This document shows positions 35,662 to 42,190 of a stretch of 64,000 nucleotides of DNA, piece after piece. The stretch is from positions 16,457-80,456 of the forward strand of contig CAYNXC010000002.1 of assembly GCA_964401135.1 (NCBI GenBank), given 5' to 3'. Under the pieces are notes generated by a model. That model was not told the DNA's origin and ran no database searches. It was given only the letters and a program-made list of their open reading frames with translations. The position numbers were made by a program, and so were the translations under genes. This DNA comes from an uncultured Candidatus Saccharibacteria bacterium. Lineage in GTDB: Bacteria; Patescibacteriota; Minisyncoccia; Phycocordibacterales; UBA9988. Within the stretch, counting starts at the first letter, position 1, and the number at the start of each line of letters is the position of its first letter.

Positions 35662-36514
35662 TAAAATTGAGAACAATATTCATGAATAAAATCTTTAAAA
35701 GACTACTCGTATTTGCGGTACTATTTGCTCTTACTTCTTCGAATGTTTTTGCTGCAACTAAAACCTGGGACTTTTCCACTTCGTCGGACTACACTTTTGA
35801 TACTACTAAAATTGAAGTCATAGGAGGACAAGCACAATTGAAAGCTACAACAACTCCTGCTTGGTATGACACCAGTTGGAAATATAGAAAGAAAATATCA
35901 ATTGACCATACAAAAATATCGTCAGATTTAACAGATTTTCCTGTTCTCGTTAATCAAACTTCTGACTCAGACTTGGCAGCCAAAGCGTTAACGTCAGGTA
36001 ACGATATATTTTTCACTTCATCTGATGGAGTTACAAAACTAAGCCACGAAATAGAGACATATGCATCAACAACAGGAGCTTTAGCTGCATGGATTAAAGT
36101 TCCTACAGTATCCTCTTCTGTAGATACTGATGTTTATATGTATTATGGTAATGCTGCAGCTTCTGCTCAAGCGAATGCAAATGGAGTATGGGATAGTAAT
36201 TCAATTGTTGTTCAACATCTTAATGCTACTACTAGCCCAGCACTAGACTCAACATCTAATGCGAATAGTGGAGTTCAGTCTGGAGGAGTTACTTTCAGTG
36301 CAACAGGCAAGATAGGTAATGCTGTGAGCATGGACGGTGTTAATGACAAACTATCCTTAACAAGTAATAGTGGCTTAAACGCAACAGGCACCCTAAGTAT
36401 TAGTGCATGGGTAAATAGAACTGCATCGGGCAAGATGAGGGTAGTTGCAAAAACAGTTACTACTGGAACAACTGACAACCCATATGATTTTGGTATAAAT
36501 ACGGATAATACACT

Positions 36515-36522
36515 TTATTTAA
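36515..36522. repeat. Target-site duplication TTATTTAA (left copy)
   Basis: Identical 8-mer directly abutting both transposon ends (the right copy is at 39496-39503). Confidence 0.85.
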
Positions 36523-36545
36523 GGGAACTATATACAATGTTACCC
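36523..36545. repeat. Left terminal inverted repeat GGGAACTATATACAATGTTACCC
   Basis: Matches the reverse complement of 39473-39495 at 21 of 23 positions. Confidence 0.88.
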
Positions 36546-36551
36546 TAAAAA

Positions 36552-37085
36552 TTAATTAGATTTTGGTTTGTCTAAATCTTCCAAAGAAAAGCCCAGGTCA
36601 GGAAAAATAAGATTTCTTAGATAAATACTCCCTGCAAAAAGAACGGTATTAATATCAACTCCAGACTGGAAAGCCCCTTGTTTGAGTGATTCTACAACAT
36701 CAGGACAATGTATTGGTAACTCCATCATTATCTCGGATATTACTTTCTCTGCATCATAAGGATTAGTCGTATTTTTACTTTGAACTAATTTTAGAAGTTC
36801 GTCTTTTTTTGCGTCAATAATTTCTTTAATTCCGCTATCATCTAAGATAGCTTGCCCTCTTGAGTTTAATTGTCGTGGAGAATTAGCAGGTGCAATTTTG
36901 TCTTTCCATAGAATATCCAGTTTAGGGAACATATCTGCCACTTTGGGTTTAATGTCTTTAATATCTTCCAGCATAAAATTTGTTCTTTCATCAATCCTCG
37001 CAATCAATTCACGAGTATTACCCAACAGGATAGCAGAAATCCAGTTACCTGCTTTTTTGGCTAAATTAAGGGCTTGTTGTTCCAT
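36552..37085 (-). CDS. Hypothetical protein (177 aa), transposon passenger of unknown function
   Basis: Intact ORF inside the transposon, divergent from the transposase. I recognise no motif. AT-richer than the rest of the element. Confidence 0.6.
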   Translation of the reverse strand: MEQQALNLAKKAGNWISAILLGNTRELIARIDERTNFMLEDIKDIKPKVADMFPKLDILWKDKIAPANSPRQLNSRGQAILDDSGIKEIIDAKKDELLKLVQSKNTTNPYDAEKVISEIMMELPIHCPDVVESLKQGAFQSGVDINTVLFAGSIYLRNLIFPDLGFSLEDLDKPKSN

Positions 37086-39025: not shown

Positions 39026-39473
39026 AACGGGCAGTGTTTTAGAGCTATTTATCAAGCGACTTTTAGAGGACAACGGCTACACCGCCTTTCCTAACCACAA
39101 AGCCCAGCTATTCGCCAATCGTAAAACTGTCGGTGGTAAGCAATACTCTACCCAAGTTCCTTGTGGTACGAGTATCTACGAAACCCAGCGTAAATGCGAC
39201 TTCTTGATCATGAACCAAGACAAGTTCCCCGATGGACTGGTGATTGAGTGCAAGTGGCAACAGTCTACTGGCTCGGTAGACGAGAAGTACCCTTTTACCT
39301 TGTTTAACATCATCAAGATCGGCGTGCCAACCATCATTCTGCTGGACGGCAACGGCTACAAAAAGGCGGCGATGAAGTGGTTAAAAGACCAAGTGAACCC
39401 ACAGAGAGCCTTAATCGGCGTTTACAATATGGCCGAGTTTCAAGCTATGGTAAATAAGGGGTTTTTAGGTTAG
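38973..39473 (+). CDS. Small PD-(D/E)XK-type nuclease candidate (putative cognate restriction endonuclease)
   Basis: KCDFLI...DGLVIECKWQ matches D...(D/E)xK. It overlaps the methyltransferase 3' end, and its stop codon lies at the inner edge of IRR. The start (38973 or 38937) is uncertain. Confidence 0.55.
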   Translation: MSLSSETTPITGGGQANKTGSVLELFIKRLLEDNGYTAFPNHKAQLFANRKTVGGKQYSTQVPCGTSIYETQRKCDFLIMNQDKFPDGLVIECKWQQSTGSVDEKYPFTLFNIIKIGVPTIILLDGNGYKKAAMKWLKDQVNPQRALIGVYNMAEFQAMVNKGFLG

Positions 39474-39495
39474 GGTAACTTTGTATATAATTCCC
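39473..39495. repeat. Right terminal inverted repeat GGGTAACTTTGTATATAATTCCC
   Basis: Reverse complement of IRL with 2 mismatches. Confidence 0.88.
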
Positions 39496-39503
39496 TTATT
39501 TAA
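39496..39503. repeat. Target-site duplication TTATTTAA (right copy)
   Basis: Identical to 36515-36522. Confidence 0.85.
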
Positions 39504-42190
39504 ATCGTGCAGATTCAAGTGTTGTAAATTTTCTATCAAGTTCAACAACTGTACCGACAAATTCATGGACAAAAATTGAAGTAATTGATGACACTGTCGT
39601 TAAAAGTGCTTTCAACAGCGTCTCAAAATTAGTCACCCTAGCGACATCTACAAGAGCGTGGCAGGGGGTAGCAAGTGATGGGACTTATATCTATGCAATT
39701 GGACAAAATGCTATTTCGCAGTTTGATATGCAAGGTAATTTTATAAAAGAAAAGAATAATGTATACAGTGGTTTTACTGGTGGCAACATCCTAGGTAATG
39801 GAACAGTAATTAATGGAAAGTTATATGTCGGGGCATATAATGCGAATACTTTAGGAGCGTCAACAAATCCTAATTACACTCCGTTATCAGATCTTCAATC
39901 AAAAATTGCTGTCTTTAGCCTATCTGATTTTTCATTAATTGAAGATTTTAACCTTGGTACTCAAGTAAAAATTGCTGAGGGTGTTGATTATCACAATGGT
40001 TACTTTTGGGTAGTTGATGGATGGTTTGATACTTTCGTCGTAAAAAAATACGATACTAGTTTTAATTTAGTCTCTACGTATAGCTTGCCTGTAGCAAATG
40101 CTTTCGCTGGAGAATTAACATACCAAAATATTAATTGGTATGGGAATGACATTTTTGTTAATTGGCATGGCTCAAATTCTTTTGGACAAACCTATGCTTA
40201 TGGGTTGGATCATTATTCTTTTGACGGAACAAATTTTAATTTTGTAGAACGATTAAGACCAGTAACATATGGTGCAGGTCAAGGTATTGCAATTGTCGGA
40301 AATACGTTTTATTGGGCAGATAGACCTGGAAATGCGATCTACAAATCAACATATGTTGGAGCTGGAAATGGTGATGATGGTATTGATCCATCACATACAA
40401 AATTTTTCATAAATGGAGTTGGTGAGCTTGCTCATGTAAGTACTGGCTCTCTCACTGTGCTTTCACCTACAAGTAATACCAGTCCAACGGTTATTGGAAC
40501 TAGGGGCGATTCAAGTAGTTTTTATAAAGGTGTCATAGATGAAGTTCGAATTTCAAATGCGGCAAGATCAGATGCATGGGTCTCGGCAAGTTACGCCAAT
40601 GAAAACTCACCAAGTACATTCTATTCGATGGGTTCGGAACAAAAAAATTATGCAGCTACTAACCCGACTGTTAATCCCACATCATTAAATGCGCAAGCCT
40701 TCTCATCCCTGTCAGGCTTTTCAGCAGTTGAAGTAAGTAATGGAGGAAATATAAAGTATCAAGTTTCAAATGATGGAGGAACCACATGGTATTGGTACAA
40801 CTCTGGCTGGAATACAACAACTTCAGGATACTCTGAGACAAATGCATCTTCAACTATAAATACAAATATCGCTTCTTTACCTGTAGGAAGTGGATCATAC
40901 TTATTTAAAGCATATTTAAATTCTGATGGAACGCAGCAACCTCAGATAGACAGTGTGGTGCTCACATACTCTGCGCCACTTGATATTACAGCTCCTATTA
41001 TATCTGCGATAGCGTCTTCTACATCCCAAACTTCAGCAACTATTACCTGGACGACCGATGAATCAGCCACATCAACGGTAAATTATGGTCTTAACACTTC
41101 ATACGGTACAGCGTCATCCTCATCATCTCTCGTTACCTCTCATTCGATATCCTTGTCAGGATTAACCGCATCAACCGCATACCATTTCCAAGTAGCATCA
41201 GCTGACGCTTCTGGAAACGTTGCAACTTCTTCAGACTATACATTCACCACAACAGCAGTGCCTGACACAACGCCTCCGGTCATTTCATCAATTTCTTCCG
41301 GTTCACTTTCAACTTCAGGAACAACTATAACTTGGACCACTGATGAAGCTGCGGATTCCCAAGTTAACTACGGCACAAGTGCCTCATATGGATCACAGAC
41401 GACCCTTGATTCAACACTAGTGACGAGTCACTCCATTGTAATTTCAGGTCTTTCTGCAGGAACGACGTATCACTACCAAGTAGTGTCAAAAGATGCTTCT
41501 GGAAACACAGCTACATCTTCTGACCAAACCTTTACCACTTCAGCACAGCCTTCGAGCGGGGGTTCATCAAGCGGATCATATTCCGGAGGAGGCTCAATCC
41601 TTATCCAACCTTCTGTGCCGGGCTGTCCTACAGGATTCAATTGTGTAGTAAATCCAACCCCTACCATTTTACCAAATACTTTTACTCGTGATCTCACCAT
41701 AAAAAGTACTGGTAGTGATGTGAAGGTATTGCAGCAGTTCCTGATCGCTAAAGGCTTTCTTGCGAGCGGCAATGACACGGGATACTTTGGTCCTCTGACG
41801 CAAGCTGCTCTCGCGCAATACCAGCTTTCGATGGGTATTAAACCATCGGTTGGATATTTCGGCTCACTTACTCGTGCAGTCATTGCTGTCTCGCAGAACA
41901 TATCACCTACTACTCCATCAATATCAACAAATCCGACGGTACTTCCAAGCACGTTTACTCGAGATCTGTATTTCGGCATGAGTGGAGACGATGTAAAACT
42001 CTTGCAAAAGTTCCTTAATGACCATCAATTTATAGTCAGCCAAACTGGCGCAGGATCTCCAGGACTTGAATCAAATTATTTCGGCCCAGCCACCCGAGAC
42101 GCCCTTATTCGTTTTCAGACTTACAATCACATAGTCCCTGCAGTAGGGTATTTTGGTTCGCTTACACGCCAATTCGTAAATGGTCAGTAG
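39504..42190 (+). pseudogene. 3' fragment of the interrupted surface-protein gene (LamG remainder, beta-propeller-like region, second LamG end, 2 FN3-like repeats, 2 peptidoglycan-binding domains)
   Basis: The frame is open from 39506 and in phase with the 5' fragment. It contains GVIDEVRISNAARSDAW (LamG C-terminus) and two copies of TITWTTDE..S.VNYG..SYG. It also has two PG_binding_1-like repeats (GYFG..T..A...Q). Confidence 0.8.

Follow-up and report, generated by a model that had tools for sequence, protein, structure and literature searches.

In the 64-kb window analyzed here, i.e., the whole 64,000-nucleotide stretch of contig CAYNXC010000002.1 from an uncultured Candidatus Saccharibacteria bacterium, two open reading frames (ORFs) on the plus strand, at positions 35682 to 36548 and 39728 to 42190, lie on either side of a segment that encodes a transposase. 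The question raised by this locus is whether the two ORFs are separate genes or the remains of a single one and, in the latter case, how long ago the gene was interrupted and what became of its product. We are highly confident that a transposon of the IS1595 family has split codon 281 of a 1,175-codon surface-protein gene and that this insertion is recent and polymorphic; the protein would thereby have been functionally lost. A 2,973-bp IS1595-family element inserted at codon 281, inside the β-sandwich of a LamG domain, and duplicated the 8-bp target TTATTTAA; transposition was presumably DDE catalyzed, as for other IS1595 elements. The two ORFs should be annotated as one disrupted gene and the element between them as an IS1595-family transposon.

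Element ends, joined reading frame, and natural alleles

The ends of the element are marked by a terminal inverted repeat of 23 nt. The left copy, GGGAACTATATACAATGTTACCC, occupies positions 36523 to 36545 (plus strand), and its reverse complement recurs with 2 mismatches, i.e., with 21 of 23 positions matching, at 39473 to 39495 (minus strand). These are the only 2 matches in the window, with 0 expected from 100 shuffles, and they delimit an element of 2,973 bp (36523 to 39495, plus strand). Directly outside the repeats, TTATTTAA is present as a perfect duplication, on the left at 36515 to 36522 and on the right at 39496 to 39503; for the IS1595 family, the ISfinder value of the target duplication is 8 bp. 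When the element and one copy of the duplication (36523 to 39503) are deleted in silico, the 5′ part of the gene (35682 to 36522, plus strand), which comprises codons 1 to 280 and the first base of codon 281 and encodes a signal-peptide-like N terminus, DUF2341, and the start of LamG, is fused to the 3′ part (39504 to 42190, plus strand), which begins with the second base of codon 281 and ends with the stop codon. The joined sequence has a length of 3,528 nt, i.e., 1,175 codons and 1 terminal stop, and shows neither a premature stop nor a frameshift; the two other frames contain 70 and 98 stops. An earlier interpretation made from the letters of this DNA (referred to below as the sequence-only reading) had proposed that excision restores a single ORF of about 1,175 codons and, by hand translation, had found no stop in positions 39506 to 39727. 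Computation bears out both statements, with 0 in-frame stops in that interval and 5 and 6 stops in the other frames, and the junction peptide DNTLYL/NRADSS (the slash denoting the junction) is exactly the one that had been given.

The interruption would leave a 5′ product of 288 aa, which retains the signal peptide, DUF2341, and approximately 40% of LamG and ends with RELYTMLP, a tail encoded by the left inverted repeat and followed by a stop codon at 36546 to 36548. On the other side of the element, the 3′ frame is open upstream as far as a TAA at 39488, which sits within the right inverted repeat, and 74 codons are open upstream of the first start codon of the 3′ part. This first in-frame start is the ATG at 39728, which corresponds to residue 356 in the middle of a propeller domain, and any 3′ product would therefore lack a signal peptide. 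With a truncated 5′ product and a 3′ remnant devoid of a signal peptide, the surface protein would be functionally lost.

The joined protein exists in nature. The natural protein P0451 is identical to it in 1175 of 1175 residues and is encoded on three independent public Logan contigs, two of which were read, namely, L085 (23 kb, SRR27197509) and L086 (7.9 kb, SRR27901409). The element is absent from both contigs, which carry the predicted empty site AATACACTTTATTTAAATCGTGCAGATTC with a single copy of TTATTTAA. The window, L085, and L086 have in common the order DUF4238, large serine recombinase, helix-turn-helix (HTH) gene, surface-protein gene, DUF5681, cupin, and EF-P, and the 3,528-nt coding sequence shows 0 nucleotide differences in L085 and in L086. 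Specifically, a comparison of the window minus the element with L085 revealed 0 substitutions from position 31518 to about 50400 (approximately 15.9 kb), the sole difference being one extra G in a poly-G run of L085 at window position 35652, and 7.6 kb of L086 compared with the window contain six substitutions and two indels of a single base each. As the gene is intact in near-clonal strains, the insertion is recent and polymorphic; it is a very recent strain-level polymorphism among such strains. The sequence-only reading had called the insertion recent and had held that it splits a gene, and the unsubstituted flanks support the first view, while the intact P0451 allele and the position of the junction inside LamG support the second. 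In the clustered protein data, the 90% cluster contains the 820-aa fragment (P0001, its representative), the 288-aa 5′ fragment, and the 1,175-aa P0451. Two large protein searches returned only the 820-aa P0001 at 100%, the intact allele being hidden inside its 90% cluster, and a contig look-up with the 820-aa fragment gave no encoding contig on record. The exact 29-mer of the empty site had no match in one metagenome contig collection, which lacks this strain, and the Sequence Read Archive run accessions were not mentioned in the searchable literature.

Orthologues are continuous over the junction as well. The closest distinct orthologue, encoded on contig L083, shares 62 to 63% identity over residues 4 to 772 and aligns across the junction without a gap, with DNKLYFNRANAS opposite DNTLYL/NRADSS (LYFNRA versus LYL/NRA). 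Single ORFs spanning the junction are represented by P0036 (48% identity, residues 168 to 636) and P0032/L001 (37%, residues 4 to 811), and the continuity in L083, P0036, and P0032/L001 identifies one gene, not two. Many other contigs, several of them labeled Patescibacteria, encode single proteins of 1,000 to 1,350 aa in which the modules at both ends (N-terminal, residues 1 to about 200; C-terminal, from about residue 640) are kept and the middle is different; the element landed within the region corresponding to this variable middle of the protein family. A scan of genome contigs yielded distant homologues only, most of which share the terminal modules and have a different middle.

Architecture and setting of the surface protein

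Pfam analysis of the joined protein revealed DUF2341, Laminin_G_3, FN3-like, and PG_binding_1 domains. DUF2341 (PF10102) is located at residues 106 to 170 (41.9 bits; cut-off, 23.4). Laminin_G_3 (PF13385; 44.2 bits on the whole joined protein) is matched in two stretches, with residues 218 to 306 corresponding to profile positions 1 to 85 and residues 575 to 641 corresponding to profile positions 89 to 151. The junction between residues 280 and 281 falls within the first stretch, and the LamG pattern does continue across it, as had been proposed from the junction peptide. In the interrupted 5′ fragment, the match stops at profile position 58 and reaches 21.3 bits, which is below the 27.6-bit cut-off. 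In-silico deletion of residues 312 to 571 results in a full-length LamG match (profile positions 1 to 151; 71.3 bits; E value, 1.3e-19). Since a nested insert interrupts one LamG match, the "second LamG end" of the sequence-only reading is the final third of that one LamG domain. Toward the C terminus, fn3/Pur_ac_phosph_N matches are located at residues 784 to 857 and 876 to 959, and PG_binding_1 (PF01471; 70.2 bits) is found twice, at residues 1016 to 1073 and about 1098 to 1170. The end of LamG is followed, ahead of the first FN3-like repeat, by a conserved segment of approximately 120 aa (residues ~650 to 770) with the motif SNDGGTTW, taken to be a β domain, for which no Pfam family was matched. 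The domain list given earlier holds for DUF2341, LamG, the propeller, the two FN3-like repeats, and the two PG_binding_1 domains, and it omits this additional segment.

AlphaFold2 was used to model residues 173 to 654 on the basis of an alignment of 8 sequences. Predicted local distance difference test (pLDDT) values for the insert (residues ~314 to 569) are mostly between 85 and 95. Foldseek searches with the insert retrieved the NHL domain of Brat (5ex7; E value, 2e-9) and a glutaminyl cyclase (3mbr; TM score of 0.69, normalized to the target), so that the insert, encoded by nucleotides ~39602 to 40369, matches in its modeled form a β-propeller of the NHL or glutaminyl-cyclase type. The propeller is nested between LamG profile positions of about 85 and 89, a topology derived from the Pfam dissection because the model cannot be relied on for the LamG portions. 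Among database proteins, a propeller inside LamG was found only in P0036, P0391/P0393 (L083), and P0032/L001; P0392, P0394, and P0395 gave partial matches to this region.

The N terminus, MNKIFKRLLVFAVLFALTSSNVFA followed by A, has by inspection the look of a Sec signal peptide. As no LPXTG-type motif was seen at the C terminus, wall association would be non-covalent, via the pair of PG_binding_1 domains. The term "cell-wall-anchored" used by the sequence-only reading is therefore better replaced by non-covalently wall associated. Judged from its domains, the joined protein would be secreted and peptidoglycan bound and probably mediates glycan or host-cell binding; an "adhesin-like" function is a guess. 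For large DUF2341-containing proteins of Patescibacteria, possible roles in adhesion or host interaction have been discussed (PMC11809585). The protein described here resembles the DUF2341/LamG surface proteins of Patescibacteria and archaea (PMC11809585) in that DUF2341 is followed by Laminin_G_3 and in having FN3-like repeats and a secretion signal, and it differs from them by the propeller nested in LamG and by the C-terminal PG_binding_1 pair.

Upstream of the surface-protein gene, a consensus scan revealed a promoter-like site at 35639 to 35667 (plus strand), composed of TTGCAA, a 17-nt spacer, and TAAAAT. The 3′ end of this spacer is filled by a G10 tract (35652 to 35661), which is located 20 nt upstream of the ATG and represents the longest homopolymer in the window. 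Its length varies, with G10 in both the window and L077 (a Logan contig with the interrupted allele), G11 in L085 (from position 4122), and G9 in L086 (from position 3190). Homologous genes in other genomes have no upstream poly-G tract. The variation could reflect either slipped-strand variation of expression or a homopolymer assembly error, and the gene may, to judge from its upstream sequence, be a contingency locus.

With respect to the genomic setting, the surface-protein gene has a GC content of 36 to 40%, compared with 45 to 50% in the surroundings. It is part of a block (32504 to 43250) that starts beside a tRNA-Ser gene and contains genes for DUF4238, a large serine recombinase, an HTH protein, and the surface protein, together with a tandem pair of DUF5681 genes; housekeeping genes with 45 to 50% GC lie on either side. 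The low GC content and the neighboring tRNA-Ser, serine recombinase, and DUF5681 genes suggest that this block is possibly an integrated element; a search for att-like copies of the tRNA-Ser gene that might bound an island around the surface-protein gene found none. An imperfect 29-nt direct repeat (79% identity; 35302 to 35330 and 42205 to 42233) brackets the HTH and surface-protein genes, with each copy just 3′ of a minus-strand gene, and may be due to chance. Farther downstream, the identity between the window and L085 collapses abruptly inside an ORF of 678 aa (50068 to 52104), at positions 50424 to 50636 and beyond. The L085 counterpart of this ORF has a weak PG_binding_1 match, and the ORF may encode a second strain-variable surface protein. 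Genes for 23S and 5S rRNA are located at 57477 to 60635 with no 16S rRNA gene immediately upstream, and a 252-aa ORF is present at 56441 to 57199; the rRNA operon may be unlinked.

Cargo and relatives of the transposon

The transposase gene (37198 to 38115, plus strand) encodes an IS1595-family DDE transposase (ISXO2/IS1595 type) of 305 aa with an N-terminal zinc ribbon (PF12762, 149.6 bits with a cut-off of 27; PF12760, 42.6 bits with a cut-off of 25.4; NF033547, 199.6 bits with a cut-off of 75). The start codon of the following gene (38117 to 39025, plus strand) lies 1 nt beyond the transposase stop; its product is a Dam-family (D12 class) N6-adenine DNA methyltransferase of 302 aa (PF02086, 203.5 bits; TIGR00571, 286 bits with a cut-off of 114.85; PADLOC MTase_II, 294 bits), and its translation contains the DPPY motif (YYLDPPY). 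The end of the methyltransferase gene is overlapped by a gene for a PD-(D/E)XK nuclease (PDDEXK_11; 38937 to 39473, plus strand; an alternative start at 38973 would give 166 aa), which is presumed to be a restriction endonuclease and shows a PF20472 match of 131.3 bits and a D...ECK motif. Its similarity to DpnII is weak (19.9 bits, under the threshold of 23; E value, 5e-4), and the E value for PADLOC REase_II is 0.007. The pairing of methyltransferase and nuclease is kept in every methyltransferase-bearing relative sampled.

The left inverted repeat is separated from the conserved transposase promoter region by an extra segment of approximately 600 bp (36549 to 37153; GC content, ~33%), which related copies of the element lack and which holds an ORF of 177 aa (36552 to 37085, minus strand). 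Searches of Pfam, NCBIfam, PHROGs, and PADLOC gave no match for this ORF. The family to which it belongs is real but carries no annotation; it comprises 433 representatives (E value, ≤1e-3) and has the invariant residues S68, P69, L72, G76, G141, and R156. Profile matches of the 177-aa ORF in the PDB were dismissed as coiled-coil noise, mostly to influenza HA2.

In the window outside positions 36523 to 39503, ACGT is a strongly underrepresented tetranucleotide (25 observed versus 142 expected; observed-to-expected ratio [O/E], 0.18), and the corresponding ratios are 0.51 for TCGA, 0.56 for CATG, and 0.77 for GATC. The depletion of ACGT hints at a restriction pressure unrelated to the Dam-type system of the transposon.

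A search with the transposase yielded 7,716 homologues, and relatives with 61 to 86% identity are plentiful in Patescibacteria-type assemblies. In every lineage sampled but one, the methyltransferase and nuclease genes are located behind the transposase gene inside the same inverted repeats (L078, L079 to L081, L088, L089, L097 to L099, and L102 to L107). In L087, the same inverted repeats enclose a different cargo. Related copies were located at L078 5876 to 8304, L079 5888 to 8298, L097 3374 to 5796, L098 2813 to 5235, L102 3385 to 6045, and L088 3012 to 6062. Perfect 8-bp duplications flank the copies in L078 (CTTATTAT), L079 (TTATCTAG), L097 (ATAGTTTT), L098 (GTTTTTGA), and L102 (TTTTGAAA), so that six are known including that of the window, and there are more sites in L080, L081, and L104 to L107. 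The canonical unit of transposase, methyltransferase, and nuclease genes spans 2.41 to 2.43 kb; the window copy, with 2,973 bp, is longer because of the extra low-GC segment with the 177-aa ORF. In the P0233 lineage, an additional ORF of 70 aa is located between the transposase and methyltransferase genes. Identical transposase proteins occur at different sites (P0132 in L079, L080, and L081; P0145 in L097 and L098), from which it follows that the three-gene unit transposes as a whole. These copies indirectly support the view that the transposase encoded in the window would be capable of transposition. Several of the contigs hosting relatives are phage-like, with D5 primase, RusA, HNH, and CHAP genes, or stem from IMG/VR. 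A comparison of the transposon DNA with plasmids and phages gave no match, the identity of the window transposase to annotated IS1595 transposases in a plasmid collection does not exceed 43%, and no restriction-modification genes were present in the two annotated IS1595 plasmid neighborhoods inspected.

Alternative explanations and known systems

The coexistence of filled and empty alleles could also be explained by a reversible ON/OFF switch of a surface antigen, operating by insertion and precise excision, with the empty sites as revertants. Such a switch would fit the near-identical backgrounds in which the two alleles occur, the length-variable poly-G tract in the promoter-like site of the same gene, which suggests selection for variable expression, and the middle of the protein family, which is highly variable between species. 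However, the empty site is free of any footprint, variants that lose the element would be selected against by its restriction-modification cargo, and the simplest reading takes the empty site as the ancestral state; only one filled site was observed. Moreover, we know of no evidence that precise excision is a regular activity of IS1595-family DDE transposases, and we regard a switch of this kind as very unlikely. Reversible phase variation is documented for IS1301 in siaA of Neisseria meningitidis and for IS256 in ica of Staphylococcus epidermidis. The locus described here resembles both in that a gene for a surface structure is split and that near-clonal strains differ in whether they have the filled or the empty allele; it differs in that reversibility is documented for those two, whereas here there is an allele pair only, in a Patescibacteria-type host that is apparently uncultivated.

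A mis-assembly, in which a transposon repeat would have been joined wrongly into a gene that is intact in the real genome, appears hardly credible. Intact alleles do exist, and L077 breaks off near window position 40031, only approximately 530 bp beyond the right end of the element, possibly a sign of difficulties in assembly. Yet L077, which stems from run SRR10580904 and a different assembler, carries the interrupted allele with 100% identity and agrees base for base with the NCBI contig over both junctions. A perfect 8-bp duplication around 23-nt inverted repeats is not a product of chimeric joining, the duplicated octamer is single at the empty site, and the element occurs just once in the 64-kb window, so that no repeat nearby could have confused the assembler.

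The assumption of two naturally separate genes for 288 and 820 aa with the element between them, suggested by the separate ORFs of the gene callers and by the L083 orthologue, which is likewise called as two ORFs (521 and 755 aa), deserves practically no credence, as it is refuted by the intact 1,175-aa allele identical to the join and by the orthologues, the junction lying inside the LamG domain, the 3′ frame having 74 open codons ahead of its first start, and the L083 gene being split elsewhere, by a frameshift in a T7 homopolymer (residue ~498; L083 1690 to 1760) within one continuous alignment. As for the L083 frameshift itself, it arose in assembly, or else this gene family has been interrupted independently by a second route.

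A recent insertion with functional loss of the surface protein thus remains the preferred explanation, and several points must be set against it. The alleles were compared as assembled contigs and may or may not coexist within a sample, and the NCBI metagenome-assembled genome and L077 may share source reads. The loss of function is predicted from the topology of the fragments, and the 820-aa remnant may be expressed at a low level. In the AlphaFold2 model, the LamG portions have pLDDT values below 35, and promoter-like matches in the region are not enriched (17 versus 14.5 expected from shuffled sequence). Finally, the methyltransferase and nuclease constitute a putative restriction-modification pair whose activity and specificity are predicted, and the mild depletion of GATC in the window (O/E, 0.77) is uninformative with regard to that specificity.

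A transposon splitting a gene is an ordinary event; the restriction-modification cargo and the variable poly-G tract are more interesting. If active, the cargo would penalize loss of the element by post-segregational killing, which would help the knockout allele to persist. The filled and the empty allele offer a natural comparison between nearly isogenic strains of an uncultivated organism: the filled strain would be without a large lectin-like wall-associated protein and has gained restriction-modification genes. The abundance, host association, or phage susceptibility of the two strains in the source samples could reveal the role of this class of DUF2341/LamG protein. A wider reading, which we consider on balance somewhat doubtful, is that of an IS1595 lineage, possibly undescribed, whose conserved cargo is a complete Dam-type Type II restriction-modification gene set directly behind the transposase gene and which would be self-mobilizing and self-stabilizing, would move among Patescibacteria-like genomes and phage-like contigs, would offer two slots for extra cargo (the 177-aa and 70-aa ORFs), and could lock in knockouts of host genes, the surface-protein gene perhaps being a contingency locus of an episymbiont.

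Members of the IS1595 family that carry passenger genes are termed "transporter IS" (Siguier, Gagnevin, and Chandler 2009, Res Microbiol 160:232, as cited in PMC3129680 and PMC2853133). The present element resembles them in combining a zinc ribbon with DDE_Tnp_IS1595, short inverted repeats, an 8-bp duplication, and passengers inside the repeats. In contrast to the annotated IS1595 elements of plasmids, methyltransferase and nuclease genes are packed tightly behind the transposase gene, and a further ORF of 177 aa is present. Furuta, Abe, and Kobayashi (2010, PMC2853133) have described restriction-modification units that resemble transposons in having terminal inverted repeats and 8-bp duplications. 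The likeness to these units extends to the imperfect inverted repeats, the 8-bp duplication, and the availability of an empty site, and one of their cases also has a COG3677 transposase-like gene. In those units, however, the transposase was lacking or was considered to be inactivated, and the case for mobility was built on one or two genomes, whereas here an intact IS1595 transposase accompanies the restriction-modification genes and the unit is found at more than eight different sites. The element thereby adds well-documented cases of restriction-modification cargo moved by an intact transposase to a phenomenon that, until now, has been inferred mostly from inverted repeats, and the restriction-modification-carrying IS1595 unit is a well-supported new example of an already known kind.

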